The notes under the pieces: generated by a model
Told to the model about the DNA's origin: nothing
Seen by the model: the letters and a program-made list of their open reading frames with translations, nothing else
The model's database searches: none
Made by a program: the position numbers and the translations under genes
Shown here: positions 2,578-56,375 of the stretch, one piece after another
Position numbering within the stretch: position 1 is the stretch's first letter
How the letters are laid out: every line of letters begins with the position of its first letter
Assembly (NCBI GenBank): GCA_040882865.1
Contig: JBBEAN010000008.1
Span: 556,437-620,436 of the forward strand
DNA length: 64,000 nt
Origin: Gammaproteobacteria bacterium
GTDB taxonomy: Bacteria > Pseudomonadota > Gammaproteobacteria > Natronospirales > JAIVGZ01
Direction of reading: 5' to 3'

Positions 2578-2994
2578 ATGGTCAACGAACGCTATCGCGA
2601 CCTCGCGCCGCTCGTGTTCCGCCTGTTTCTCGCGTTCGTGTTGATTTATGGCACGCTCGACAACGTCTTGAGCCAAGAACGCATGGTGGAGTTTCGTGAT
2701 TTCCTCGCGCAGAATGGCTTCCCGTACCCGCCGTACGCGGCGTACCTTGGCGTGTATGCGCAGTTCATCGCCGGTATCCTGTTCGCGCTGGGCTTGTTCA
2801 TCCGGTACGCCGCGGCGGTGATGGTGGTGAATTGGATTGTCGCAATCGTGATGGTGCATTGGGGGCTGCCCTTCCAGCAGAACATCGCGGTCATCGCGAT
2901 GCTGGTCGGGGCGGTGTTCTTCGTGTTGTACGGCGCGCCGCGTTACTCATTGGATGCGTGGCGCAGGAGGGGAGTGACACATGGCCAAATCTAA
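2578..2994 (+). CDS. DoxX family membrane protein
   Basis: 138 aa, four TM helices, DoxX-like sequence (FLAFVLIYGTLDNV..., YLGVYAQFIAGILFALGLF). Confidence 0.75.
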   Translation: MVNERYRDLAPLVFRLFLAFVLIYGTLDNVLSQERMVEFRDFLAQNGFPYPPYAAYLGVYAQFIAGILFALGLFIRYAAAVMVVNWIVAIVMVHWGLPFQQNIAVIAMLVGAVFFVLYGAPRYSLDAWRRRGVTHGQI

Positions 2995-3079
2995 AGACCA
3001 GAAACGGGAAACCAAGAAGCAACCAAAGATGACCTTGCAGGAAAAGCGCGTCGCAAAACGCGAGAAAAAAGGGAAGTAA
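2981..3079 (+). CDS. candidate small lysine-rich protein (32 aa)
   Basis: Below the ORF-track size cut-off. ATG 2981 is preceded by AGGAGGGGAG (2966-2975). Translation MAKSKDQKRETKKQPKMTLQEKRVAKREKKGK, stop TAA 3077-3079. Overlaps the DoxX 3' end by 14 nt. Confidence 0.35.
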   Translation: MAKSKDQKRETKKQPKMTLQEKRVAKREKKGK

Positions 3080-3081
3080 AC

Positions 3082-3264
3082 TCAGTCGTACGGCGGCGGC
3101 TGGTCGGTCGCCTGTTGCGGGCCGATCAGCAGCAACACGATGAACGCGAGGAACGGGCTCGCGAGCAGCGACAGGATGAAATAGCCGAACAGCGAACGGC
3201 CGCGGTTGCGCGCGAACACGCCCACCATGACCGAGAACAATAGGTAGAGCAGTACGAGAACCAT
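3082..3264 (-). CDS. small membrane protein (2 TM)
   Basis: 60 aa with two hydrophobic helices separated by ARNRGRS and a Pro-rich tail. ATG start 3262-3264. Confidence 0.5.
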   Translation of the reverse strand: MVLVLLYLLFSVMVGVFARNRGRSLFGYFILSLLASPFLAFIVLLLIGPQQATDQPPPYD

Positions 3265-3371
3265 CGGTGCAGTTTACACTTGATCTGCACGGTGTTCCTC
3301 CATGTGGACTACACTACCCCCATGCCTGCGCCTCGAGGAAAGCTGGCAGACCGAGTCGGCGCGCTGCCGCT

Positions 3372-4985
3372 ATGACTGCGTACCGCGCCTTCCTTGTCGC
3401 ACTCATTTTCGTCGGCCTGATCGTCGTCGGCGCGGTTTTCGTCACGCTGCAGGCGGCTGAGACAACCGCCGCCCGGACCGAAGCGGCTGGACGTCTGTTG
3501 TTGCTCGAGCGGGTGAAAGTGAGCCTGCTGCGCAGCGAAAGCACGCAACGCGCCTACCTGTTGACCGGAGACGGCGCATACCTGCAGTTGTCCGAGCGGA
3601 ATGCGGCCGACGTCGTCCAGCACCTCGATAGGCTGCGCGCCGGCGGCTATGCCGCCCACACACTGCCTGCGGACATCGCCGAATTGCATGCCGCGGCGCG
3701 CGGGCGCATCGATTCGCTGCGCGAGGTCATCGACACGAACGGTCGCGACGGGCCTGATAGGGCCCAGCTGCTCATCCGTGATCGCGCGTCGGCCGACATG
3801 GACCGCTACCTCACCGTGAGTGCGCGGATCGAGCAGAGCGAGACCGTTCACCTGCAATCGCTGCGGGACCATTCAACAGTCCTGGCGACGCGCTTGCTGT
3901 GGCTGCTCGGTCTTGGTGCCGTGCTGAATCTCGCGTTGCTCTGGCTCGTCTACCGTGTCATGCGCGGCGACATGCGCCTGAAGCAACAGCTGATCGACCG
4001 GATGGAGAAGAGCGGAGACGAAATCGTCCACCTGAACGAGATGAACAGCGCATTGCTGTCCTGCAGCGACCAGCAGGAGGCGAATCAAGTTGTGCGTCAC
4101 TACATCCGATTGCTCTTCCCCGGTACCGCTGGCGGCCTGTACTTGTACCGCGCATCGCGCAACCTGCTGGAACTGCAGGCCACGTGGGGTACGCCTGACG
4201 GCGCCGTCGCTGATTCGATACTGAGCGACGAATGCTGGTCGTTGCGGCGCGGTGCCACCCATCTCCACCGTGGCGACGACGACCTCGCATGCACGCATGT
4301 CGACCCGAGCGGCACGGGTTACTGTTGTGTACCGATGATGGCGCTCGGCGAGACGCTGGGCATGCTCCATACGCAGTGCGATTCCTCTGACACCGAGCGG
4401 GTGCGGTTGATTGAGACCGTCGCGACACAGGTAGCGAGCGCGATGGCGAATTTAAATCTACGCGCCGCGTTGCATGCGCAATCTATCAAGGATCCGTTGA
4501 CCGGCCTTTTCAACCGCCGCTACCTCGAGGAGACCGTCCAGCGCGAGACGCTCCGGGCGTTGCGCAACGACGGTTCGATGGGTGTGGTCATCCTGGACAT
4601 AGACCACTTCAAGACCTTCAACGACAGCCACGGGCACCAAGCCGGCGACTATGTGCTGCAAGTGGTCGGCGAAGCGCTGCGCAATGCGATCCGCGGCGAC
4701 GATATTGCGTGTCGCTACGGTGGCGAGGAGTTCACCTTGATTCTGCCGGGCGCCACGCTCGAGCAAGCGGTGCAGCGCGCGGAACAGGTGCGCATCGCAA
4801 TTTCACAACTGCCGTTACACGTCGGCGGGCGCACGCTCGACGCGATTACGATATCGCTCGGCGTCGCGTCGTTCCCGGCACATGGCAACGACTGGCCTCG
4901 TGTATTGCAGGCGGCCGACGCCGCTCTCTATCAGGCGAAACAAAAGGGCCGTAACTGCGTCGTCACCGCGGTACGCCCTGAATGA
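3372..4985 (+). CDS. diguanylate cyclase, CHASE3 sensor / GAF-like / GGDEF
   Basis: Active site RYGGEEF with an RxxD I-site (RGDD) 5 residues upstream. CHASE3-like periplasmic region (STQRAYLLTGDGAYLQ) lies between two TM helices. ATG 3372 (MTAYRAFLVALIF) is preferred because the GTG at 3267 sits only 2 nt from the divergent gene's start codon. Confidence 0.85.
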   Translation: MTAYRAFLVALIFVGLIVVGAVFVTLQAAETTAARTEAAGRLLLLERVKVSLLRSESTQRAYLLTGDGAYLQLSERNAADVVQHLDRLRAGGYAAHTLPADIAELHAAARGRIDSLREVIDTNGRDGPDRAQLLIRDRASADMDRYLTVSARIEQSETVHLQSLRDHSTVLATRLLWLLGLGAVLNLALLWLVYRVMRGDMRLKQQLIDRMEKSGDEIVHLNEMNSALLSCSDQQEANQVVRHYIRLLFPGTAGGLYLYRASRNLLELQATWGTPDGAVADSILSDECWSLRRGATHLHRGDDDLACTHVDPSGTGYCCVPMMALGETLGMLHTQCDSSDTERVRLIETVATQVASAMANLNLRAALHAQSIKDPLTGLFNRRYLEETVQRETLRALRNDGSMGVVILDIDHFKTFNDSHGHQAGDYVLQVVGEALRNAIRGDDIACRYGGEEFTLILPGATLEQAVQRAEQVRIAISQLPLHVGGRTLDAITISLGVASFPAHGNDWPRVLQAADAALYQAKQKGRNCVVTAVRPE

Positions 4986-5063
4986 CTATTTGGGAATTTT
5001 TACTCTCAAATAGTGTGATGCAGTTCGCACCGCTGGCCGATTCGGGCGCGTACAAATCCTCAC

Positions 5064-5423
5064 ATGAACGAAGACATCACCCAAATCCGGCGCCGCGCGG
5101 TCATGAGCCGCGCGCTGCTTCGCACGACGAGCCGCCTCGGTCTGAGCCGCGAACGGCTCGCGTCCGCGACCGGCCTGCGTCTTGCCGAAATCGCCTCGCT
5201 GGAAAACGAAGCGGGCGAGCTCGACCCGGCCGACCCGCGCTGGAATGCGTTCGTCGAACTCGTCCGCTTATGCTGGATCCTGGACGTCGTGTCGGCGGGC
5301 GACGACGCCGCCATGCGCGACTGGATGCATTGCTACAATCGCGACCTCAACGCCGTTCCGGCCGACTTCATTGCAGGCGAACGCGGGCTCAGCGAGGCAA
5401 TCCGTTACCTCGAGGCCCACTAA
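5064..5423 (+). CDS. Xre-like HTH / DUF2384 (MbcA-ParS type) antitoxin-like protein, no toxin partner
   Basis: 119 aa. The C-terminal part (DDAAMRDWMHCYNRDLNAVPADFIAGERGLSEAIRYLE) resembles the DUF2384 toxin-binding domain of RES-toxin antitoxins. No RES-type ORF is adjacent. Confidence 0.55.
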   Translation: MNEDITQIRRRAVMSRALLRTTSRLGLSRERLASATGLRLAEIASLENEAGELDPADPRWNAFVELVRLCWILDVVSAGDDAAMRDWMHCYNRDLNAVPADFIAGERGLSEAIRYLEAH

Positions 5424-5438
5424 CCACTCGTTTCAGCT

Positions 5439-5777
5439 TTAGTGGCCTTCGTGATCCTTCCGGCCCTTACCCTTGCCTTTGCCTTTGTGCATCTTTTCCA
5501 TCTTCGCGATCTGGTCTTCATTGAGAAGCGCGCGAATCTCGGTGCGGACCTGCTCGTGCGACTTCTTGATTTGCTCACGCGCGTCTGCGGTCCGCTCGTG
5601 ATGCTGCTTCATAAGCGCTTCGACCTGGGCGCGCTGGCTGTCGGTGAGATCCAGCCGCTCGGCCATGCGGTCCATGTGCCGCTCGTGCCTGTCGCCGCCA
5701 TGCTCGCCGGGGTTCGCCCAGGCGCCGCTCGCCAGTGTGAGGCCCAGCGCCGCGGCCGTCAGTAGAGTCATTCTCAT
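5439..5777 (-). CDS. Spy/CpxP-family periplasmic protein (LTxxQ motif)
   Basis: Signal peptide MRMTLLTAAALGLTLASGAWA. LTDSQRAQVEALMKQHHE motif. His/Lys-rich tail. GGAG lies upstream of ATG 5777. Confidence 0.75.
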   Translation of the reverse strand: MRMTLLTAAALGLTLASGAWANPGEHGGDRHERHMDRMAERLDLTDSQRAQVEALMKQHHERTADAREQIKKSHEQVRTEIRALLNEDQIAKMEKMHKGKGKGKGRKDHEGH

Positions 5778-5850
5778 GATGCATCTCCGTAGTGGGACGT
5801 ATGGCAGTATGAACCGGATCCCCCCACAAAGTTCCGTTGCGAGCAATCGC

Positions 5851-6960
5851 CTACGACGTCGCCCGGCGGCGGGTGAACATCACCGGCACGAATCGCACGA
5901 AATAAACGAGGAAGCCGGCCACCCAGAGCGCCGCCGCCACAACCAGTGCGAGCCGCCCGGCATTGAACGGCAGCAATGGATAGATGAGTCGCGGTACCAC
6001 CGCGGTCGCAATCAGTACGAATGCAGTGACCATCCAGCCATCGGCGCGCAGGGGCCGGCCACTGTGGCCAAGCGCCACGCGCGTCATCATGCCGATTGCA
6101 AGGCTGCCGAGCGCACCCATCGTCAGCGCGTGCAGCGTCGCCGCGGGTGGGAATGGCGTCGCCCGTAACGCGAGTGCGATGACAATCCAGAGATAGCCGA
6201 CGTGGAGTATCCACAACAACGGAACGCCCAGCGTGCCCCAAGGCTTCCAGTACGTCATGCGGGCCGCGAGCAACAACGCCGCGGCGACCGCGACCCAACC
6301 CGGCCACGCAGCGGTCGGCGCGAGCCAACCGGCAATCACCGCGGCAATGACCGCCGCCACGGACACGTGTCCAAGCTGCGCATTGTCCTTGACGCCGAGT
6401 GTCGGCAATCCACGCCCGGTGAAAAACGGGATCACACGCGCACCGATGAAGACCAGGAGGATCATCACGACATCGATCGCCGCCCTCAAGAACGCGACCG
6501 ACGGCCAAAGGTGCACCGCGACGCCCGCGAGCGATAAGGCCGTGAGAATCGCGAGCACCGGGTAATTGCGACGATTCCGAGTCGCGAGGATTGGCACGGC
6601 GACCACAAGGGTCAGCGCCGGGAAGAAGGCTGCCGCAAGCACCTCAACGACGGGCATCGGCAGAACCGGCCAGACGAGGCCGATGCGCGGCACCAGCCAG
6701 AGGACGGCAAGGCCCGCGATGAGCCGCGGCCCGGCGACGAGCCGACCGGTCCAGTTGCCGACGGCCGTGAGCAAGAATCCGGCAATCAGCGCCGCCGCGA
6801 AGCCGAACACCATCTCGTGCCCGTGCCACACCAACGGCGACCAGCCGACCGCGCCCTGGCCGCTGCCGGTGAGGAACGCGACCCAAGCGATGACGTGGAA
6901 CACCGCGAAACCGGAAGCGGCGAGGAAGAACGGACGAAACCCATCGGAAAATAGCGGCAT
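5851..6960 (-). CDS. NnrS family membrane protein
   Basis: Starts MPLFSDGFRPFFLAASGFAVFHV, a typical NnrS N-terminus, followed by about 12 TM helices. The 528-aa track ORF is an upstream over-extension that overlaps the next + strand gene. Confidence 0.8.
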   Translation of the reverse strand: MPLFSDGFRPFFLAASGFAVFHVIAWVAFLTGSGQGAVGWSPLVWHGHEMVFGFAAALIAGFLLTAVGNWTGRLVAGPRLIAGLAVLWLVPRIGLVWPVLPMPVVEVLAAAFFPALTLVVAVPILATRNRRNYPVLAILTALSLAGVAVHLWPSVAFLRAAIDVVMILLVFIGARVIPFFTGRGLPTLGVKDNAQLGHVSVAAVIAAVIAGWLAPTAAWPGWVAVAAALLLAARMTYWKPWGTLGVPLLWILHVGYLWIVIALALRATPFPPAATLHALTMGALGSLAIGMMTRVALGHSGRPLRADGWMVTAFVLIATAVVPRLIYPLLPFNAGRLALVVAAALWVAGFLVYFVRFVPVMFTRRRATS

Positions 6961-7056
6961 TGCCGCACCATAGGCGGTCGCGCCCCGTCGGACGTTGCGC
7001 CAGCGCAAACCGCACGGTACCGTACTGGACGATTGCCTTGGAATCAGGAGCACGCA

Positions 7057-7617
7057 ATGCCGTTGACAATCAACTTCGAACTCAGTGATCAGGACCTCGA
7101 ACATTTCCGCGAGCTCATGCAAAAGGCGATCACGGCCGCGGCAACGGAGGCCCCGTCCGCCATCATTGCGGGTACCGAGAAGCTGCTCGCGCGGCTGCGC
7201 GGTGTTGAGCTGCCGGAGTTCATCCGCACGCGGATGACGAGCCTCGAGATGATGAAAACGATGCTCGAGGACAAGGGCTTCGACCTGCCTGACGAAGAGC
7301 GCCAGCGCGTGGTGAGCGCCCTGACCTACTTCCTCGATCCGGACGACATCATCGCTGACGACATCCCCGTGCTGGGTTTCCTCGACGACGCGATCATGAT
7401 CGAGTTGATCAACGAGGAGCTCCAGGAAGAGCTGCACGCGTACCGCGACTTCTGCCAGTTCCGGGAGACCGAATGCAACCGGCGCGGCACCGAGATCTCG
7501 CTGATGACGCGTGAAGAGTGGATGGACTCGAAGCGGATTGAGCTCATCGACCGGATCCGCGAACGCCGTGCCGAGCGCGGCCGCCGCGGCCGCCGGTCGC
7601 TATTCGGCGGCTACTGA
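7057..7617 (+). CDS. DUF1232 (YkvA-like) domain protein
   Basis: DIPVLGFLDDAIMIELI matches the DUF1232 core. AGGAG lies 6 nt upstream of ATG 7057. Confidence 0.55.
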   Translation: MPLTINFELSDQDLEHFRELMQKAITAAATEAPSAIIAGTEKLLARLRGVELPEFIRTRMTSLEMMKTMLEDKGFDLPDEERQRVVSALTYFLDPDDIIADDIPVLGFLDDAIMIELINEELQEELHAYRDFCQFRETECNRRGTEISLMTREEWMDSKRIELIDRIRERRAERGRRGRRSLFGGY

Positions 7618-7621
7618 CGCT

Positions 7622-8971
7622 TCACTCGAGTTTCCGATACAGGGTGCGGCGCCCGATGTCGAGAATTTCGGCAGCGCGCCGCTTGTTGTCACCCGTGTAC
7701 TCCAATACCCAGCGGATGTAGCGCCGCTCGAGCTCGGCGAGCGTGATCGGCATCGCATCGCCGAGTCCGAAGGGGTCCGACTTCGCCTGTGACGCCTCGT
7801 CGCCGCCCGCGCGAACGCGATCCGGTAAGTGGCGCGGTTCGATTCGGTTACCGGAGCAAAAGGTCGCGGCGCGCGTGAGCGTGTTCTGCAATTCGCGCAC
7901 GTTGCCGGGGAACGGGTACTTCTGGATCATCTCGAGCGTCGCATCCGCGAGCATCAACGACGGCCGCCCCAGGTCGCGGGCGAGCCGCGCGAGGATGTGT
8001 GCGGCGAGCTCGATTTTGTCGTCGCCGCGCTCACGCAGCGGCGGCAGGTGCAGTTGCAGCGCCTCGAGCCGGTAATACAGGTCCTCCCGCACTGCGCCCG
8101 CAGCGACTTCATCCTCGAGCTTGCGGTTCGTCGCGGTGATGATGCGGACATCCACCTCGATTTCGGCGTTACCCCCGACCGGCCGCACCTTATGGTCCTG
8201 CAGTACCCGAAGGAGTTTTGCCTGCAGCGCCAGCGGCATTTCGCCGAGCTCGTCGAGGAACAGCGAACCGCCGCCCGCTTCCGCAAACAGCCCCGCGCGG
8301 GCGCCGCGGGCGCCCGTGAAGGCGCCGGCCGTGTGTCCGAAAAATTCCGCTTCCAGCAACGCCTCGGGGATACTCGCGCAGTTCACCGGCACGAACGGAC
8401 CCGCCCGACGCTCGCTCTCGTCGTGGATTGCGCGCGCGACGAGTTCCTTGCCGGTGCCCGACTCGCCCGTGATCAGAACGGGTTCCGATGAGCGCGCGAC
8501 CTGGCGGATCGCGGTGTACACGCGCTGCATCACCGTGCTCGATCCGACCATGCCGTGAAATTCCGACGCACCCCGCAGCGCATCGAGATCCGCGCGCGCG
8601 CGCCGCTGTGCGAGCACGCGGTCGACGCGAATGACCAGGTGCTCGAGATCGAGCGGCTTCGTCAAAAAATCATCGGCGCCCTTCTTCAACGCTTCGACCG
8701 CCTGGGGCACCGAGCCGAACGCGGTAATCAGCACGATACCGGGGCTGCCGGGCTGCGCGCGCAGCGACTCGAGCAGGTCCATCCCGTTACCGTCGGGTAA
8801 TCGAAGGTCGCTGATGACGACGTCGCACGGACTCGCCGAAAGGAATTGCCGAGCCGCCTTGATACCGGGCGCGGTCTCCACCGTGTAGCCATGCTCGGCG
8901 AGCTCGTCCGCCAGTAATTGCCGAAGCGCGTCGTCATCCTCGACGATCAGGATCGTTGCGTACTCAGGCAT
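7622..8971 (-). CDS. sigma-54-dependent response regulator (NtrC family)
   Basis: REC domain, AAA+ domain with Walker A GESGTGKE and the sigma-54 contact loop GAFTGA, and a C-terminal HTH (RRAAEILDIGRRTLYRKL). Confidence 0.9.
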   Translation of the reverse strand: MPEYATILIVEDDDALRQLLADELAEHGYTVETAPGIKAARQFLSASPCDVVISDLRLPDGNGMDLLESLRAQPGSPGIVLITAFGSVPQAVEALKKGADDFLTKPLDLEHLVIRVDRVLAQRRARADLDALRGASEFHGMVGSSTVMQRVYTAIRQVARSSEPVLITGESGTGKELVARAIHDESERRAGPFVPVNCASIPEALLEAEFFGHTAGAFTGARGARAGLFAEAGGGSLFLDELGEMPLALQAKLLRVLQDHKVRPVGGNAEIEVDVRIITATNRKLEDEVAAGAVREDLYYRLEALQLHLPPLRERGDDKIELAAHILARLARDLGRPSLMLADATLEMIQKYPFPGNVRELQNTLTRAATFCSGNRIEPRHLPDRVRAGGDEASQAKSDPFGLGDAMPITLAELERRYIRWVLEYTGDNKRRAAEILDIGRRTLYRKLE

Positions 8972-10412
8972 CGCTGCGGAACCTCATCTCGAAGCCGGCG
9001 CCGCCGAGGTCCTCGCTGCGGTACACGATGAGTTCGGCGCGGTGGTCGGCCGCGACGCCGAGGACGATCGCGAGCCCGAGTCCGCTGCCCTCGCCGGGCG
9101 CCTTGGTGGTGAAGAACGGGTCGAACATGCGCTCGCGCACCGCATCGTCGATGCCGGGGCCCGAATCCTCGACGAACAGGGCCGGGTCATCGTGGTGCAA
9201 GCGCCAGCCGACCCGGACCGTACCGCCCGGTGCTGCCTGCGCGGCGTTACGCAGCAAGTGGCCGAGCGCCTCGCGCAAACGGCCAAAGTCGGCACGCGGC
9301 ACGTCCGCATCGCCATCCGGAAGTCGCACGTCAACGAGTGTTCCTTCGGCGCGGCAGCGCTCGCGGGTATCCGTCGCTGCGAGCGACACGAGTTGCCTTA
9401 GCGACACATCGGCGAGCGCCGCGTGGCTCGCGCGGCCGAAACCGAGCAGTTGCCGGATCACCGACGACATCCGGTCCACCGCATTGCGGATGCCGATCGA
9501 AATATTCCCGAACTGAGTACCGGGCTCGGCGATGCGCGCGAGCTTCTGTGCGTGCGCGTCGACGACTGCGAGCGGCGTGCCGAGCTCGTGCGCAACGCCC
9601 GACGCGAGCCGGCCGACCATCGCGTACTTCGCGCTCTCGCGCAGCCGTGCCTCGAGTTTTTCTTGATGTTCGCGCTTCGCCGCGAGGTCCGCATCCTTCT
9701 CGATCATCGCCTCGAGCATGCCGTTGAAGCGGTGAGCGAGCTGGCGCAGTTCGCCCGGACCGCGTTCTTCCGCGCGCACCGAGCTATCACCCCCAGCGAC
9801 CGCATCCATCGTGTGCTTAAGCGACTGTAGCGGCCGGCCGATCGCGAGGTAGTGGCCGACATAGACGAGGATTCCGAACAAGACCGCGCCCATCAGCAGC
9901 AGCCAGACACCGTTGCGCCGTAACTGCGCGAGGTAGGCGCGCATCGCGCCGGCGTCGCGCGTGACTTCGAGCAGGCCGATCACCTGGCCGCTCGTTGCGT
10001 ACAAAGGCACGAAGTACGAGTACATCTCGCGCCCGCCGACTGACGACGCGTACTCGCCGCCGGCTGCTTGGGTCCCGGGTCCGGCAACCGCGCGCCGTGG
10101 CTGCCGCACGGCCGGGTCCTGGTCCGCGGCCGCGACAAGTTCGCCGTGCTCGTCGTAGACGTACACGCCGTAGACGCGCCCCGTGCCGTACGCCGACCAC
10201 AGCGCGAGATCGAGTTCGCGGTCGCTGCGGCTCTGAAGCGACCGGCTCATCGGCGCCTGCAGCGTCCGGGCAATCAGCTCAATGTCCTCCTTCATGCGGT
10301 CCTCGATCCGCTCTTCGAGCGCCTGCACGGCTAAAAGCCCCACCGCGAACGCGACGAGGAGCGGCAGCGACACGAGGACGATCAGGACCAGGCGGATACC
10401 GATGTTGTGCAT
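8964..10412 (-). CDS. sensor histidine kinase (periplasmic sensor, HAMP, HisKA, HATPase)
   Basis: H-box SGVAHELGTPLAV and G-boxes DSGPGI / GEGSGLGLAIV. Two TM helices flank a periplasmic domain of about 150 aa. Overlaps the regulator gene by 8 nt. ATG 10412 (MHNIGIRLVLIVLV) is preferred over the longer track ORF. Confidence 0.85.
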   Translation of the reverse strand: MHNIGIRLVLIVLVSLPLLVAFAVGLLAVQALEERIEDRMKEDIELIARTLQAPMSRSLQSRSDRELDLALWSAYGTGRVYGVYVYDEHGELVAAADQDPAVRQPRRAVAGPGTQAAGGEYASSVGGREMYSYFVPLYATSGQVIGLLEVTRDAGAMRAYLAQLRRNGVWLLLMGAVLFGILVYVGHYLAIGRPLQSLKHTMDAVAGGDSSVRAEERGPGELRQLAHRFNGMLEAMIEKDADLAAKREHQEKLEARLRESAKYAMVGRLASGVAHELGTPLAVVDAHAQKLARIAEPGTQFGNISIGIRNAVDRMSSVIRQLLGFGRASHAALADVSLRQLVSLAATDTRERCRAEGTLVDVRLPDGDADVPRADFGRLREALGHLLRNAAQAAPGGTVRVGWRLHHDDPALFVEDSGPGIDDAVRERMFDPFFTTKAPGEGSGLGLAIVLGVAADHRAELIVYRSEDLGGAGFEMRFRSDA

Positions 10413-10605
10413 GGGGACCAGCGTAGCGTGCGCGTGCGCATGTGCCGATTTGGCAAAAACCCTATATGGAGCCGGAAAAAGCGGGGTTTTTCCCCCGCTG
10501 GATTCAGTCGTGTGCCAGATTGTCCCAACCCGCGGAAAGGTCAACGCTTGACGCACCTACCGCGAGAGGCGCCCCACTCAAGGCTTTTCGCCATTCGAAG
10601 TGTTC

Positions 10606-10621
10606 TGGCATGGGCCTTGCA
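10606..10621 (+). promoter_or_regulatory. sigma-54 (-24/-12) promoter
   Basis: TGGCATgggccTTGCA matches TGGCAC-N5-TTGCW, with GG at 10607-08 and GC at 10619-20. It lies 45 nt upstream of ATG 10666 and is divergent from the sigma-54 regulator operon. Confidence 0.65.
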
Positions 10622-10665
10622 TCTATGTCAGCACACTCAAACTTTACCTTGAAGGAGGTATACCA

Positions 10666-11556
10666 ATGCATCTGACAAAAGCACTGGCAGCACTGAGCGC
10701 CGGGTCGCTTCTGTTGATCGGGCACTCGACACTCGCCTACGCACAGGATGATCCGTATACGGACGACACACGCGACGAGCAGTCGACCGAAACCACCACG
10801 CAGGACGACACTTGGTCGAGCGACACCGAGACCACAGCCGATGCCGACGTGGACATGCAGGATGATTCCGATGTCGAGTCCGACTCGACGATGGACACGT
10901 ATGCCCAGAACGAGGATGACGAGTACAGCGCCGAAGTGGATGTCGACTCGAGTTCCGAGTCGGATTCCGACGTGTACGCGCGTACCGAAGATGACGAGTT
11001 CCGTGCCGACGTAGACGTCGATGCGGAAAGCGACACCTATGCTGCGACCCGGGACGACGATGAGTTCCGTGCCGACGTAGACGTCGATGCGGATGCCGAC
11101 AGCGACACCAGCTCGTCGACCTACGCGCAGACCGAAGACGATGGCTTTGACGCCAGCGCCGACGTGAACGCGGATGTCGACAGCAGCGCTTCGCCGGACC
11201 TGCAGGAGCAGGTCGCCCAGATTGACGTCGAAGTGGACGTCGACGCGGCGAAGATCGAGGAGCTCGCGCAGATCCACGTGGAAATGCAGAAAGAGACCCG
11301 CGATCTTGCCGACCAGATGTCGGGCGCCGGTTCGACTGCAGACGCGCAGGAACTTCAGGCGCAGATGGTCGACCGCCAGGTCGAGGTGATTGAACGCCAC
11401 GGTTGGACCCGCGATGAGTACAACGCGGTCGTCGACACCGTGAACGAGAATCCCGACCTCCGCGCGCAGTTCATCGAAAATGTGGTGAACAGCGATACCG
11501 CGGTCGCGCAGACTGAGTCGGAAGACCCGGCTGCCGAGGAAGACACCGACTGGTAA
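10666..11556 (+). CDS. secreted, highly acidic repeat protein with C-terminal DUF4168-like domain
   Basis: GGAGG RBS and signal peptide MHLTKALAALSAGSLLLIGHSTLAYA. About 190 aa are dominated by D/E/T/S with repeated Y-A-x-T-E-D-D-E-F-R-A-D-V-D-V-D-A units. The C-terminus (ELAQIHVEMQKE...WTRDEYNAVVDTVNENPDLRAQF) resembles DUF4168. Confidence 0.7.
   Translation: MHLTKALAALSAGSLLLIGHSTLAYAQDDPYTDDTRDEQSTETTTQDDTWSSDTETTADADVDMQDDSDVESDSTMDTYAQNEDDEYSAEVDVDSSSESDSDVYARTEDDEFRADVDVDAESDTYAATRDDDEFRADVDVDADADSDTSSSTYAQTEDDGFDASADVNADVDSSASPDLQEQVAQIDVEVDVDAAKIEELAQIHVEMQKETRDLADQMSGAGSTADAQELQAQMVDRQVEVIERHGWTRDEYNAVVDTVNENPDLRAQFIENVVNSDTAVAQTESEDPAAEEDTDW
10996..11093 (+). repeat. intragenic tandem duplication (66-nt period) in the acidic protein gene
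   Basis: The 32-nt string GAGTTCCGTGCCGACGTAGACGTCGATGCGGA occurs identically at 10996-11027 and 11062-11093. Confidence 0.85.
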
Positions 11557-11655
11557 AAGCAGCGGTCAAGTCCGGCCCTAGCAGACGCATCGGTACGAAG
11601 CAGTAGCAGTGAGTCGTCAGCCGAAGCAGTAAACGTACCGATTTAGGTCCGGCAA

Positions 11656-11689
11656 GCGCCCGTCAGTCCCTGACGGGCGCTTTTTTTTT
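11656..11689 (+). terminator. rho-independent terminator
   Basis: 10-bp stem GCGCCCGTCA / TGACGGGCGC with a 5-nt loop, followed by a run of nine T. Confidence 0.8.
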
Positions 11690-11692
11690 GGT

Positions 11693-11950
11693 TCAATGAT
11701 TGCGAAGCGCGCTGATCAACTCGCCTTTGTCCATTCTTGACCGGCCGTCGATGCCGATTTCGGAGGCGCGCTTTTCCAGTGCCTCTTTCGTCCAATCTTC
11801 GTAATCACCGGCTTTACCGCCTTTCCGTCCGACGGCTTCGCGGCCTTCGTTCGCCGCAGCGTTCGCGATGCGGGCGGCTTTCTCTTTGCTCGCGCCGTCC
11901 TTACGCAGTTCCTGGTACGTCTCTTCATCTTTGATCTGTTTCGATGGCAT
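11693..11950 (-). CDS. small Rho_N (SAP-like) domain protein
   Basis: 85 aa. EETYQELRKDGASKEKAARIANAAA... and the C-terminal KGELISALRNH are typical of small Rho-termination-factor-N-terminal-domain proteins. Confidence 0.65.
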   Translation of the reverse strand: MPSKQIKDEETYQELRKDGASKEKAARIANAAANEGREAVGRKGGKAGDYEDWTKEALEKRASEIGIDGRSRMDKGELISALRNH

Positions 11951-12048
11951 GAAGGGGCTCCTCCGCTCCGGGTGTGCACGGGATGGTCGCAGGGGCGGGT
12001 CGTCTGGTATGTTGGCTGCCTCACACAGTGCATTGAATTGGAGGCTTT

Positions 12049-13836
12049 ATGCTTCGCCGCGCCCTCGTTATCGTGATGTTGCCCATCTTCCTGCTCGCAG
12101 GCTGCGCCCAGGAGGAGGCACAGACGCAGACCGCCGCCGACGCCGGCGCCGAACTCAACGCGCTGTTCGAGCGCCATTTCGAACAGAACCTGGAGCTGAA
12201 TCCGCTCGGTTCGACCTTCCTCGGCGAACGGCGGTACAACGACCGCTTCCCGAACAGCATCGGCCCTGAACATCGCGCTGAGCAGCTCGCGCTTGAGCAG
12301 CGATTCCTCGAGGAGATTCGTGCAATCGACCCATCGGGGTTGGGTGAGCAAGATCGGCTGAGTTACGAGATGTTCGTTGCCGACCGCGAACGCGCAATCG
12401 CCGGCGAGCGCTTCCCGAACCACTTGATGCCGTTGAACCAGTTCTATTCGACGCCAAATTTCTTCGTGCAACTCGGCTCCGGTTCGAGCGCGCAACCGTT
12501 CGAGACGGTCGAGGATTACGAAAACTTCTTGAGCCGTATCGACGGGTTCGTGGTCTGGGTTGACCAGGCGAAAACCAACTTCCGCGAGGGCATCGAGCAG
12601 GACGTGGTGCTGCCGCGCATCCTCGTCGAGCGCACACTGCCGCAGCTCGCCGCACATGTCGTCGACGACCCGGAGCAGAGCCTGTTTTGGCGCCCCATCA
12701 CGAACATGCCGGACGCCATCATCGGCGACGATCGCACGCGGATCATGGATGCTTACCGTGCTGCAATCACGGACCAACTCGTACCGGCGTACGCCGGGCT
12801 GCATGATTTCCTGCGCGACGAGTACCTGCCGCATGCACGCGAGACGGTGGGTATGAATGCGTTGCCGAACGGTGAAGAGTGGTACGAATTCCGCGTCGCG
12901 AACATCACGACGACGGACCTCACCCCGGCCGAGATCCACGAAATCGGTCTCGCCGAAGTCGCGCGCATCCACGAAGAAATCCGCGGGGTGATGGCCGACG
13001 TGGGTTTCGAGGGAACGTTGCACGAATTCTTCGTTTACACCGAAACCGATTCGCAGTTCTTCTACGAAACGGGTGAAAAGTTGATCCAGGGTTACCGCGA
13101 CCTGCAGGCGGTTGTCGACCCTCTGTTACCCGCGCTGTTCGACCTCGCGCCGAAGGCGAATTACGAAGTTCGCGCGGTCGAGCCGTTCCGTGAGCAGTCC
13201 GCGGCCGGCGGTTCTTACATGCGGCCATCGCCGGATGGCTCGCGGCCGGGCGTTTTTTATGCGAACACGTACGACATCAAGGCGCGCCCCATTTGGGCGA
13301 TGGAATCCCTGTCGCTGCATGAGGCCTCGCCGGGCCATCACTTCCAGCTTTCGATCCAGCAGGAGCTCGAAGGCCTGCCGCGCTTCCGCCGCTTCGGCGG
13401 CTATACGGCGTACACCGAGGGCTGGGCGTTGTATGCCGAGACGCTCGGTAAGGAACTCGGCGTGTACACCGACCCGTATCAGTATTACGGGGCGCTGTCC
13501 GCGGAGCTCTGGCGCGCGATCCGGCTCGTTGTCGACACCGGGTACCACCACCACGGCTGGACACGCGAGCAGGTGCTCGAGTACATGGACGCGAACTCGG
13601 CGACGGCACCCGCGCGAGCGATTGCCGAGGCCGAACGCTACATCGCCATCCCGGGCCAGGCGGTCTCGTACAAGATCGGCCAGCTGAAAATTTCCGAGCT
13701 CCGTGCGCGCGCGGAGCAAGCGCTTGGCGATCGCTTCGATGTGCGCGCATTCCACACCGAAATCCTGAAGGACGGAGCACTTCCGCTCGACGTGCTGGAG
13801 GGCAAAATCAATCGGTGGATTGAGACCCAGCTATGA
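12049..13836 (+). CDS. DUF885 family lipoprotein (metallopeptidase-like)
   Basis: Lipobox LLAGC. HEASPGHHFQ motif typical of DUF885. 595 aa. Confidence 0.8.
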   Translation: MLRRALVIVMLPIFLLAGCAQEEAQTQTAADAGAELNALFERHFEQNLELNPLGSTFLGERRYNDRFPNSIGPEHRAEQLALEQRFLEEIRAIDPSGLGEQDRLSYEMFVADRERAIAGERFPNHLMPLNQFYSTPNFFVQLGSGSSAQPFETVEDYENFLSRIDGFVVWVDQAKTNFREGIEQDVVLPRILVERTLPQLAAHVVDDPEQSLFWRPITNMPDAIIGDDRTRIMDAYRAAITDQLVPAYAGLHDFLRDEYLPHARETVGMNALPNGEEWYEFRVANITTTDLTPAEIHEIGLAEVARIHEEIRGVMADVGFEGTLHEFFVYTETDSQFFYETGEKLIQGYRDLQAVVDPLLPALFDLAPKANYEVRAVEPFREQSAAGGSYMRPSPDGSRPGVFYANTYDIKARPIWAMESLSLHEASPGHHFQLSIQQELEGLPRFRRFGGYTAYTEGWALYAETLGKELGVYTDPYQYYGALSAELWRAIRLVVDTGYHHHGWTREQVLEYMDANSATAPARAIAEAERYIAIPGQAVSYKIGQLKISELRARAEQALGDRFDVRAFHTEILKDGALPLDVLEGKINRWIETQL

Positions 13837-54620: not shown

Positions 54621-56375
54621 TCACAAATCCGTCAGCGTCCCCGCGAACGCTTCCGCCGAGAAGGCCACCGTCTCCGACAGCGTCGGGTGGGGGTGGATCA
54701 CAAGGCCGATGTCGTGCGCATCCGCGCCCATCTCGATCGCGAGCACCGCTTCTGAAATGAGATCGCCCGCGTTCGGGCCGACGATGCCCGCGCCGATCAC
54801 GCGTCCGGTCTTTTCATCGAACAGCAACTTGCTGAACCCGTCCTGCGCGTCGAGCGCGAGCGCACGACCGCTCGCCGCCCACGGGAAGCGGCCCTTGCCG
54901 ACCTTGATGCCTTTCTGTTTGGCTTCGGTCTCGGTCATGCCGCACCACGCGACCTCCGGGTCGGTATATGCGACCGACGGAATCACGCGCGCGTCGAACG
55001 CCGATTTTTGGCCGGCGGTGACTTCCGCCGCGACTTTCGCTTCGTGCGTCGCCTTGTGCGCGAGCATCGGATTGCCGGCGACGTCGCCGATCGCGAAGAT
55101 GTTCGGCTGGTTCGTGCGCATCTGTTCGTCCACGGGGATGAAGCCGCGGTCGTCGACCGTGACGCCAGCCGCGTCCGCGCCAAGGCCGCGCCCGTTCGGC
55201 TTGCGTCCGATGGCAACGAGTACACGGTCGAAGGTCTGAGATTCCGGCGCGTCCTTGCCGTCGAACGACACCGCGATGCCGCCTTTTTTCGCCTCGAGTT
55301 TCGCGACTTTCGTCGAGAGCCAGATGGCTTCGCACTTCGACTCGAGGCGCTTCTGGAGCACCTTCACGAGGTCGCGGTCGGTTCCCGGCATCAGTCCATC
55401 GGAAAGCTCCACGACACTGACTTTCGTACCCAGCGCCGCGTACACCGTCGCCATTTCGAGCCCGATGATGCCGCCGCCGACCACGAGCAGGCTCGCCGGC
55501 ACATCCTCGAGCGCGAGCGCGCCGGTGGAGTCGATGATGCGCGGGTCTTCGGGCGCACCCGGGAGCTTCACGACGGACGAACCGGCCGCGATGATCGCGT
55601 GCTCGAAATGGATGAGTTCGTTCTTGTCGCCCTCGACCGCGAGGTGATTCGCGTCCTTGAAGCGGCCGACGCCGGTCACGACCGATACCTTGCGTTTTTT
55701 CGCGAGCGCCTTGAGCCCGCCCGTGAGCTGACCGACCACGCCGTCCTTGAACCCGCGCAGCTTTTCGAGGTCGAGCTTCGGCTCACCGAATGAAACGCCG
55801 TGCGTGCCGAGCGTCTCGACTTCCGCCATCACGCGCGCGACGTGCAGCAATGCTTTCGACGGGATGCAGCCCACGTTCAGGCATACGCCGCCGAGCGTCG
55901 GGTAGCGCTCGACCAATATGACTTTCTTGCCGAGGTCGGCTGCGCGGAACGCCGCGGTATAGCCGCCGGGGCCGGCGCCGAGGACCAGCACATCGCACGC
56001 CAACGTGGTGTCCTTACGGGTGGGAGCGGCGCTCTGCGCCGCGATTGGCTCGGATTTCTCCGGCGCCGGTTTTTCCTCGCGGCGCGAAGGCGCCGCTCCT
56101 GCATCCAGGTCACCTGTAGGAGCGGCACCTTCGTGCCGCGATCCGTCAGAAGCTTCGAGCTCGGCAATCTCGCTGCCCTGCGACACCTTGTCGCCGGCCT
56201 TGACCAGGAGCTTCGTGACTTTACCGGCGTGGGTCGATGGCACGTCCATCGCAGCCTTGTCGGTCTCGATGGTGATCAGGCCCTGCTCGGCCTCGACCGA
56301 TTCGCCTTCGGCGACCAGCACCTCGATGACCTCGACGTCCGAGAAATTCCCGATGTCGGGAACGAGAATTTTCAT
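54621..56375 (-). CDS. lpdA: dihydrolipoyl dehydrogenase (E3) with N-terminal lipoyl domain
   Basis: Lipoyl domain (ITIETDKAAMDVPS), FAD site LVLGAGPGGY, redox disulfide CLNVGCIPSK, and HPHPTLSE. 584 aa. Confidence 0.9.
   Translation of the reverse strand: MKILVPDIGNFSDVEVIEVLVAEGESVEAEQGLITIETDKAAMDVPSTHAGKVTKLLVKAGDKVSQGSEIAELEASDGSRHEGAAPTGDLDAGAAPSRREEKPAPEKSEPIAAQSAAPTRKDTTLACDVLVLGAGPGGYTAAFRAADLGKKVILVERYPTLGGVCLNVGCIPSKALLHVARVMAEVETLGTHGVSFGEPKLDLEKLRGFKDGVVGQLTGGLKALAKKRKVSVVTGVGRFKDANHLAVEGDKNELIHFEHAIIAAGSSVVKLPGAPEDPRIIDSTGALALEDVPASLLVVGGGIIGLEMATVYAALGTKVSVVELSDGLMPGTDRDLVKVLQKRLESKCEAIWLSTKVAKLEAKKGGIAVSFDGKDAPESQTFDRVLVAIGRKPNGRGLGADAAGVTVDDRGFIPVDEQMRTNQPNIFAIGDVAGNPMLAHKATHEAKVAAEVTAGQKSAFDARVIPSVAYTDPEVAWCGMTETEAKQKGIKVGKGRFPWAASGRALALDAQDGFSKLLFDEKTGRVIGAGIVGPNAGDLISEAVLAIEMGADAHDIGLVIHPHPTLSETVAFSAEAFAGTLTDL
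56016..56046 (-). repeat. REP element, orientation B, 3-nt loop, in frame inside lpdA
   Basis: ACGGGTGGGAGCGGCGCTCTGCGCCGCGATT. Sense-strand translation IAAQSAAPTR. Confidence 0.9.
56075..56144. repeat. REP doublet (tail-to-tail, no spacer) in frame inside lpdA
   Basis: 56075-56110 CCTCGCGGCGCGAAGGCGCCGCTCCTGCATCCAGGT (orientation A). 56111-56144 CACCTGTAGGAGCGGCACCTTCGTGCCGCGATCC (orientation B, stem variant GCGGCAC/GTGCCGC). Sense-strand translation GSRHEGAAPTGDLDAGAAPSRRE. Confidence 0.9.

Follow-up and report, generated by a model that had tools for sequence, protein, structure and literature searches.

NtrBC with glnA promoter 2 combines a REC-AAA+-HTH activator carrying the GAFTGA motif, two upstream dyad enhancers and a -24/-12 promoter; the NtrC site reads TGCACC-N5-GGTGCA. 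CpxP, associated with CpxAR, and Spy are small periplasmic proteins that are induced by, and feed back on, envelope-stress two-component systems. In the ZraPSR system of E. coli and Salmonella, the gene of a periplasmic protein is placed on a sigma-54 promoter, divergent from the operon of a membrane kinase and an NtrC-family regulator, and this regulator is believed to bind between the two transcription units (PMC4987338, PMC7657598). The locus described here is part of a 64-kb stretch of DNA, the whole of which was analysed and is referred to as the window. It exhibits a sensor kinase and a sigma-54 activator back-to-back with the gene of a predicted secreted, extremely acidic DUF4168 protein; the circuit is real, though of a fairly conventional stress type (Table 1). 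It is laid out like ZraPSR but, as judged from its sequence, is not a ZraPSR member.

Table 1. Features of the kinase/regulator/DUF4168 locus (positions in the window).
Feature	Position	Strand	Basis or remark
Sigma-54-dependent response regulator (bEBP): REC, AAA+ sigma-54 activation domain, Fis-type HTH	7622..8971	-	Pfam
Sensor histidine kinase: HAMP, HisKA, HATPase_c	8964..10412	-	Pfam
Distal enhancer site S1 (candidate), TGTGCCGATTTGGCAAA	10441..10457	.	12/14 to TGTGCCA-N3-TGGCACA
GC hairpin AGCGGGGTTTTTCCCCCGCT	10480-10499	-	7-bp stem, then T5 on the minus strand; terminator-like, toward the kinase gene
Proximal enhancer site S2 (candidate), TGTGCCAGATTGTCCCA	10511..10527	.	12/14 to TGTGCCA-N3-TGGCACA
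Sigma-54 (-24/-12) promoter CTGGCATGGGCCTTGCAT	10605-10622	+	best sigma-54 match in the window
Shine-Dalgarno GGAGG	10654-10658	+	7 nt before ATG; conserved in relatives
Sec-type signal peptide MHLTKALAALSAGSLLLIGHSTLAYA, AYA/Q cleavage motif	10666..10743	+	read from the sequence; conserved; predicted
Polyanionic region, residues 27-190	10744..11235	+	predicted disordered
DUF4168 domain, predicted four-helix unit	11236..11520	+	Pfam PF13767
Intrinsic terminator	11654..11691	+	13-bp stem, T9

A base-by-base check of the coordinates placed the kinase (10412..8964) and the regulator (8971..7622) on the minus strand, followed by a divergent region of 253 bp, and the ORFs of the locus also agree with an earlier note on this DNA. 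The regulator, in which the GAFTGA motif was found, exceeds the Pfam cut-offs for Sigma54_activat (231 bits), Response_reg (95.7) and HTH_8 (41.5), in agreement with the NtrC-type assignment of that note. It remains under every NCBIfam equivalog cut-off, the best models being AtoC (415/714 bits) and NtrC (405/559), and its nearest solved structures are Aquifex NtrC-family proteins. The kinase exhibits two TM segments and a periplasmic domain of ~145 aa with weak PAS/sCache-like matches, and no sequence relative of this sensor domain was found in the PDB. Relatives keep its start codon at 10412 and show indels that break the frame upstream of this codon, and its stop overlaps the start of the regulator by 8 nt.

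A diverged ZraPSR, which would respond to zinc or envelope stress through a ZraP-type chaperone, would share the layout of zraP/zraSR (PMC4987338), and the regulator aligns to the ZraR model over its full length and matches the ZraR structure 1OJL. Nevertheless, the ZraR model (NF007689) gives only 337.7 bits for a cut-off of 760 and is outscored by the AtoC, NtrC and LuxO models, whereas the ZraS model (NF007688) gives 108.7 bits for a cut-off of 479, covering only residues 248-474, which form the kinase core. No sigma-54 promoter points toward the kinase: no minus-strand match with up to two mismatches is present in 10413-10665, the intergenic regions of relatives exhibit matches on the plus strand only, and no kinase-operon promoter was identified. 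With regard to the output, Pfam assigns the acidic protein to DUF4168 only, with no LTXXQ or Metal_resist match. The probability given by hhalign between DUF4168 and the LTXXQ protein of the window is 1.6%, and a PDB profile search with DUF4168 finds no ZraP, Spy or CpxP. No relation of DUF4168 to the Spy/CpxP/ZraP family was detected, and its membership of this family was rejected; we consider a diverged ZraPSR extremely improbable. The window also comprises a true Spy/CpxP/ZraP-family gene (LTXXQ), at 5774..5439. As no sigma-54 element or dyad is present upstream of it, and as its adjacency is not kept in the related locus L014, a regulatory link with the circuit was rejected.

A sigma-54 promoter was taken to require GG and GC 10 nt apart within YTGGCACG-N4-TTGCW, upstream of a gene. 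The element in Table 1 shows one mismatch to this pattern, and 44 nt separate it from the ATG at 10666; the sequence previously proposed, TGGCATGGGCCTTGCA, is present at 10606-10621. On both strands of the window, two one-mismatch matches to TGGCAC-N5-TTGCW were found, of which this element is the sole intergenic one. Counting the window with 14 others, 15 distinct DUF4168 loci carry a CTGGCAYG-N4-(C/G)TTGC element 38-47 nt before the ATG, and its position holds down to ~30-45% identity of the DUF4168 domain while the flanks diverge; as background, the search pattern matched 20 times in 181 kb, and these promoters account for most of the matches. The promoter of the earlier note is both the best match in the window and conserved in related loci. 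No sigma-70-like promoter was found in 5000-12200. Transcription of the DUF4168 gene is predicted to start near 10631-10633 and, because of the intrinsic terminator downstream, the gene is probably monocistronic.

Four elements upstream of this promoter had been singled out, of which two proved to be conserved. The palindromes TGCCGATTTGGCA (10443-10455) and TGCCAGATTGTCC (10513-10525) were found in place and are two copies of one conserved 17-bp dyad, referred to here as S1 and S2. These are the sole matches to TGTGCCANNNTGGCACA with up to two mismatches in the window, and both are inside the divergent region. Measured from the -24 GG, the centres of S1 and S2 lie 158 and 88 bp upstream, respectively, which places them 70 bp apart; the S1 centre is 28 bp away from the kinase start codon. 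Among the kinase-linked loci where both dyads could be placed, the centre-to-centre distance is 69-70 bp (the window, L001, L002, L003, L004, L006, L009, L010, L013 and L014). S1 is kept as GCGCATGTGYCA...TGGC in all kinase-linked loci, and in L009 (873-889) and L013 (2327-2343) the S2 orthologue is perfectly palindromic.

The other two elements are not conserved across the related loci. The palindrome GTCAACGCTTGAC is present at 10540-10552, but it is lost even in close relatives, where its counterparts read GTCGACGCTGGAC, GTTGAGGCTGGAC or TCCGATTGTGGAC, and it was rejected as an enhancer. Unlike the two dyads, GTCAAcgcTTGAC is not conserved. The GC hairpin does exist, one C longer than described and shifted by 1-2 nt, with phased A5/T5 tracts on both sides. 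It is restricted to the close relatives L001, L002, L004 and L006 and absent in L009, L010, L013 and L014; it is not a known RNA according to an Rfam search, which gave no match at E<=1. The structure of the 118-nt kinase leader region is not unusual (z = -0.65). No IHF site with up to one mismatch to WATCAANNNNTTR was found between S2 and the promoter (0/7 loci).

Comparison with the related loci indicates that the conserved module comprises three genes, those of the kinase, the activator and the DUF4168 protein. L001-L004, L006 and L009-L014 each have an orthologous kinase gene that runs divergently from that of the DUF4168 protein (45-94% identity in the sensor domain), and an orthologous regulator (61-96% identity) is present in every locus whose contig extends that far. 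Outside the module, L014 and the window share nothing. This comparative evidence strongly supports the ZraPSR-like layout of the earlier note, in which the sigma-54 promoter of the acidic DUF4168 protein is divergent from an NtrC-type operon and preceded by enhancer palindromes. The promoter is kept in L015 and L016, where kinase and dyad are both absent, and in L008, which exhibits weaker dyad-like sites and no adjacent two-component system; other activators could therefore serve some family members. As L018, L019 and L020 exhibit no sigma-54 promoter, the link between sigma-54 and DUF4168 fails for the family as a whole.

Based on these observations, we propose that the membrane kinase, through its periplasmic sensor domain, would phosphorylate the NtrC-type enhancer-binding regulator, which would then bind the two TGTGCCA-N3-TGGCACA dyads and use ATP to open sigma-54 RNA polymerase at the promoter. 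The product would be a monocistronic mRNA for a Sec-exported protein, in which a disordered polyanionic stretch precedes the four-helix DUF4168 domain. S1, which adjoins the kinase start codon, may in addition exert feedback on expression of the kinase operon. The sequences and their comparison show the parts themselves, a promoter kept across loci, two dyads kept at a fixed distance, and a kinase, regulator and DUF4168 gene that are inherited together. From these we infer that the adjacent regulator is the activator and that S1 and S2 are its sites, the assignment of the dyads to this regulator being one of guilt by association. Alternatively, the promoter could be real but activated by an enhancer-binding protein encoded elsewhere, the adjacent two-component system being a mere neighbour and the dyads autoregulatory operators. 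L008, L015 and L016 retain the promoter although no orthologous kinase or regulator is encoded next to it, and in the loci compared S1 directly adjoins the kinase start codon or includes part of it, a typical position for such an operator. However, the kinase and DUF4168 genes stay divergent neighbours from 96% down to ~30-45% domain identity, without other shared neighbours; S2 lies 63-89 bp upstream of the -24 element across loci, a normal enhancer distance; and the dyads vanish where the two-component system is absent. An activator encoded elsewhere is in our view quite improbable, and we assign a probability of roughly 70% to a self-contained three-gene signalling module running as proposed.

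The predicted secreted protein exhibits a net charge of about -75 and contains D-x-D-x-D runs. Its putative signal peptide, read by eye from the sequence, is MHLTK-ALAALSAGSLLLIG-HSTLAYA followed by Q, and is conserved in relatives. Residues 27-190 comprise 37% D+E and no Lys (net charge -55), with about four degenerate YAxTEDDEF(R)ADVDVD repeats, and are modelled with pLDDT <50 and no secondary structure. Tandem Repeats Finder detected no DNA-level repeats in this region; the repeats are degenerate and can be recognised only at the protein level. A halophilic origin of the acidity was rejected, as the median pI of proteins from 23 long ORFs nearby is 5.9. The PF13767 match covers residues 195-268 (31.1 bits for a cut-off of 25.8), and AlphaFold2 confidently predicts four helices for the domain (pLDDT 87.7). 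An exact-protein look-up, a first metagenome scan and a plasmid tblastn returned nothing, and word-indexed searches for homologues either were dominated by low-complexity matches or gave few matches. An HMMER search found 65 DUF4168 cluster representatives at E<=1e-3. Foldseek, the PDB profile search and hhalign gave no significant structural or profile neighbour of DUF4168 (best Foldseek match E=1.3; CnrX E=4.7, TM 0.27), and no paper was found under the Pfam name, the Pfam accession or the InterPro accession.

Most family members are ~125-145 aa long and comprise a signal peptide, a Pro-rich linker and the DUF4168 domain. What is conserved alongside the two-component system is this domain of ~85-95 aa, which relatives such as L013 and L014 carry in a protein of 133-135 aa. 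The polyanionic region is, in the relatives compared, a hypervariable, clade-specific addition of variable length, whose repeat number differs between near-identical strains. The architecture given in the earlier note stands, with the corrections that two of its four upstream elements are conserved and that the polyanionic region lies outside the conserved module. The high charge, the D-x-D-x-D runs, the strain-to-strain variation in repeat number, as in surface proteins, and weak low-complexity matches to the serine-aspartate repeat regions of SdrD and ClfA would all fit a protein acting mainly in cation handling or at the surface (divalent-metal sponge in the periplasm or outside the cell, mineral binding or SD-repeat-like adhesin), with DUF4168 as a simple anchor and no feedback on the kinase. 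Nevertheless, the SdrD and ClfA scores are far under their cut-offs (19 vs 2500 bits), and the acidic region is missing from most family members, including the two-component-linked L013 and L014, so the conserved function must lie in the DUF4168 domain; we find a mainly cation-handling or surface role rather unlikely.

By analogy with ZraP and CpxP, the DUF4168 domain may tentatively be seen as a periplasmic effector or accessory partner, the acidic region of this clade possibly binding or buffering cations; again by analogy, the circuit may have an envelope- or metal-stress role. More speculatively, DUF4168 proteins might be a hitherto overlooked family of periplasmic partners, each serving its own sigma-54 two-component system much as ZraP and CpxP serve theirs, with an unrelated fold. 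The fast-evolving, disordered polyanionic tail of this clade would then make the module both a sensor and a buffer of periplasmic cations (divalent metals, polyamines or cationic peptides), with kinase feedback. Should the DUF4168 domain prove to be a kinase accessory protein, the few families of periplasmic two-component modulators would gain another. The locus gives DUF4168 its first regulatory and genomic context and defines a compact, portable three-gene module, whose predicted enhancer motif and promoter are directly testable and whose predicted secreted output is unusual in its charge and variable repeat number.

With regard to known systems, the protein agrees with Pfam DUF4168 in its C-terminal domain, which is above the gathering threshold, whereas in this clade the linker is replaced by a polyanionic, length-variable region of 60-190 aa, the mature N-terminus reads DPYTDRTQD and is conserved, and the C-terminus carries DW. 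CpxP/CpxAR and Spy resemble the locus in having a small helical protein, predicted to be periplasmic in the locus, whose gene adjoins a two-component system and is probably under its control. In contrast, Cpx uses an OmpR-type regulator and sigma-70, where the locus exhibits an NtrC-type regulator and sigma-54, and no homology was detected between CpxP/Spy and DUF4168. NtrBC/glnA likewise combines a -24/-12 promoter with two dyads located ~90-180 bp upstream of the transcription start. It differs in its site (TGCACC-N5-GGTGCA, vs TGTGCCA-N3-TGGCACA here) and in dyad spacing (69-70 bp here); NtrB is cytoplasmic, whereas the present kinase has a periplasmic sensor domain, and the regulator stays under the NtrC cut-off (405 vs 559 bits). 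In ZraPSR, both divergent promoters depend on sigma-54 and ZraR, while the present locus has a sigma-54 promoter on the DUF4168 side only; the kinase and regulator are not orthologous to ZraS and ZraR, whose cut-offs they miss, and the target, DUF4168, shows no detectable relation to LTXXQ. The circuit logic is otherwise textbook, and the novelty is modest, the locus being a variant of a known circuit type.

The circuit architecture and regulatory elements predicted in the earlier note are confirmed and sharpened by the comparison of related loci, and we consider the circuit itself probable, at roughly 0.7-0.8. All the elements that it listed are present on the sequence, none displaced by more than 1-2 nt. 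The kinase and regulator ORFs overlap by 8 nt and are divergent from the gene for the acidic secreted protein. In Pfam searches, the kinase exhibits HAMP, HisKA and HATPase_c domains, with weak PAS/sCache-like matches in its periplasmic part, and the regulator, which carries GAFTGA, exhibits REC, Sigma54_activat (231 bits) and HTH_8 domains. In the acidic protein, of 296 aa, residues 195-268 match DUF4168 at 31.1 bits against a cut-off of 25.8. As its gene is closed by an intrinsic terminator, it is monocistronic. The regulator gene is convergent with a DUF1232 protein gene, and the acidic gene with a gene for an 85-aa DUF7218 and Rho_N-like protein.

Coordinates of the features of the locus and of the other window features discussed
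Feature	Position	Strand	Remark
LTXXQ gene	5439-5774	-	
nnrS	5851-6930	-	
DUF1232 protein gene	7033-7617	+	
Regulator ORF	8971..7622	-	ORF call
Kinase ORF	10412..8964	-	ORF call
Divergent region, kinase/acidic gene	10413-10665		253 bp
Dyad S1	10441-10457		12/14 dyad positions
GC hairpin	10480-10499		
Dyad S2	10511-10527		12/14 dyad positions
Acidic protein gene	10666-11556	+	
Intrinsic terminator	11654-11691		strong (13-bp stem, T9), 3' of acidic gene
DUF7218 and Rho_N-like protein gene	11693-11950	-	
Second-best sigma-54-like match	56238-56253	+	within ORF 54621..56375 (-)

The element TGGCATGGGCCTTGCA upstream of the acidic gene has one mismatch to TGGCAC-N5-TTGCW, and only two such matches occur in the whole window; the second-best sigma-54-like match is TGGCACGTCCATCGCA. 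A search of 5000-12200 for sigma-70-like promoters gave none. Related loci (labelled L001 onward) were gathered in three ways, namely with homologues of the acidic protein, by searching exhaustively with HMMER for the DUF4168 domain, and with small canonical DUF4168 proteins. CTGGCAYG-N4-(C/G)TTGC is found 38-47 nt 5' of the start codon in the window, L001-L004, L006-L010, L011/L012 and L013-L016, in which the DUF4168 domain is down to ~30-45% identical to that of the window and the intergenic sequence around the promoter is unalignable. Over both strands of the 181 kb of locus sequence, this pattern has only 20 hits, most of them being the promoters just described. Based on the match and its conservation, the sigma-54 promoter proposed for the acidic gene is predicted to be real. 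L018, L019 and L020 lack such a promoter, and the sigma-54 link therefore spans a large PF13767 subfamily and not the whole family. In L015 and L016, small DUF4168 genes (3832-4270 and 3827-4261, respectively) have their own sigma-54 promoters, the latter gene immediately following one for a PQQ-dependent dehydrogenase (2600-3667).

With regard to the upstream elements, the palindrome TGCCgatttGGCA and the presumed half-site TGCCagattGTCC of the earlier note turned out, on comparison of the loci, to be two copies of one conserved 17-bp dyad, TGTGCCA-N3-TGGCACA, which is perfectly palindromic in L009 (873-889) and L013 (2327-2343). These copies, S1 and S2, are the sole dyad matches with at most two mismatches in the 64 kb. 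They are 69-70 bp apart in the window, L001, L002, L003, L004, L006, L009, L010, L013 and L014, and the intervening sequence is not conserved in these loci. Across loci, 63-89 bp separate the centre of S2 from the -24 GG downstream of it, and the distance of S1 to the kinase start codon is 0-31 bp, which suggests that S1 may also mediate autoregulation of the kinase operon. The dyad is found where the kinase adjoins the DUF4168 gene. L015 and L016, which keep the promoter and have no orthologous two-component system within 4 kb, exhibit no dyad at 11/14 or better; L008, with no adjacent two-component system, retains the promoter and weaker dyad-like sites. The third proposed enhancer, GTCAACGCTTGAC, was rejected, as it is not conserved among relatives. 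The GC hairpin, located between S1 and S2, is conserved in the nearest clade only. It resembles a minus-strand terminator that points to the kinase start, with T5 after its stem, and is flanked by A5/T5 tracts at 10455, 10476 and 10487, with a phasing of ~10-21 bp; it has no Rfam match, and its region shows no unusual stability. No IHF-like site was found between S2 and the promoter.

Orthologues of the kinase and regulator, identified by tblastn with the window kinase, its sensor domain and the regulator as queries, are divergent from a DUF4168 gene in L001-L004, L006 and L009-L014, with identities to the window of 45-94% for the sensor domain and 61-96% for the regulator. As L014 has no further neighbour in common with the window, being flanked by toxin-antitoxin genes, the module consists of the kinase, the regulator and the DUF4168 gene. 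L009 exhibits two tandem acidic DUF4168 paralogues, at 1015-1944 (309 aa) and 2028-2678 (216 aa), that follow one sigma-54 promoter. As in the window, the DUF4168 gene of L002 and L003 and the tandem pair of L009 have DUF7218 and DUF885 genes downstream.

The mature acidic protein comprises 58 Asp, 29 Glu, 2 Lys and 10 Arg residues, for a net charge of about -75. This acidity is not a genome-wide trait, since the median pI of 23 long ORFs is 5.9. Residues 27-190, with 37% D+E and no Lys, comprise a degenerate repeat, YAxTEDDEF(R)ADVDVD, in about four copies. AlphaFold2, from a shallow alignment, predicted no secondary structure for these residues and gave them a pLDDT under 50. The DUF4168 domain is a confidently predicted four-helix unit (pLDDT 87.7, pTM 0.71). 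Most DUF4168 representatives have a length of 110-160 aa and contain, besides the domain, a signal peptide and a Pro-rich linker; the acidic insert is limited to one clade (P0005, P0009-P0012 and P0019). Acidic proteins of 257, 296 and 314 aa occur in relatives with 93-96% identity in the remainder of the protein (window 10744-11235, L004 6001-6942 and P0001), and the differing repeat number indicates rapid expansion and contraction of the acidic region. The mature N-terminus, (Q)D(D)PYTD(R)T(Q)D(R), of the DPYTDRTQD type (window 10744-10790), is conserved in P0005, P0006, P0009-P0011 and P0019. A C-terminal DW (window 11545-11553) is kept in most proteins of the acidic clade, P0005 and P0019 being without it, and the stretch between the N-terminal motif and the C-terminus is hypervariable. 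The two conserved motifs could be interaction or sorting motifs. Three giant proteins, P0013 (1208 aa), P0039 (1528 aa) and P0068 (1535 aa), exhibit 5-13 separately matched DUF4168-like stretches each; the domain can therefore form long tandem arrays.

A Foldseek search of the PDB with the DUF4168 domain gave nothing significant (best E=1.3), the periplasmic metal sensor CnrX reaching only E=4.7 and a TM of 0.27, and a profile search of PDB sequences did not find ZraP, Spy or CpxP. Our literature search found no paper containing DUF4168, PF13767 or IPR025433. The reading that we prefer, doubtful as it is, is that the DUF4168 domain might be a periplasmic effector or accessory partner of the kinase, to which the polyanionic tail would add cation binding in this clade.

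In the ZraPSR system, to which the earlier note had likened the locus, zraP and zraSR are transcribed from divergent sigma-54 promoters under the control of ZraR, and the ZraP protein, a zinc-dependent periplasmic chaperone, represses its own system (PMC4987338, PMC7657598). The likeness holds for the layout. Membership in ZraPSR is contradicted by every sequence criterion examined: the regulator scores 338 bits against a cut-off of 760 with the ZraR model and is scored higher by the AtoC, NtrC and LuxO models, the kinase scores 109 bits against 479 with the ZraS model, through its kinase core only, no sigma-54 promoter points toward the kinase, and the target belongs to a family unrelated to ZraP. 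A bona fide member of the Spy/CpxP/ZraP family (LTXXQ/Metal_resist), a 111-aa secreted protein with a KGKGKGKGRKDHEGH tail, is encoded ~2 kb from the two-component system, directly downstream of the NnrS-family membrane protein gene nnrS. No sigma-54 element or dyad lies upstream of this gene, its adjacency to the module is not conserved, and hhalign of its product with DUF4168 aligned the signal peptides alone (probability 1.6%). The circuit of the window is a new form of a well-known circuit type, with an unsurprising logic, and it provides a useful first handle on the unstudied DUF4168 domain family.
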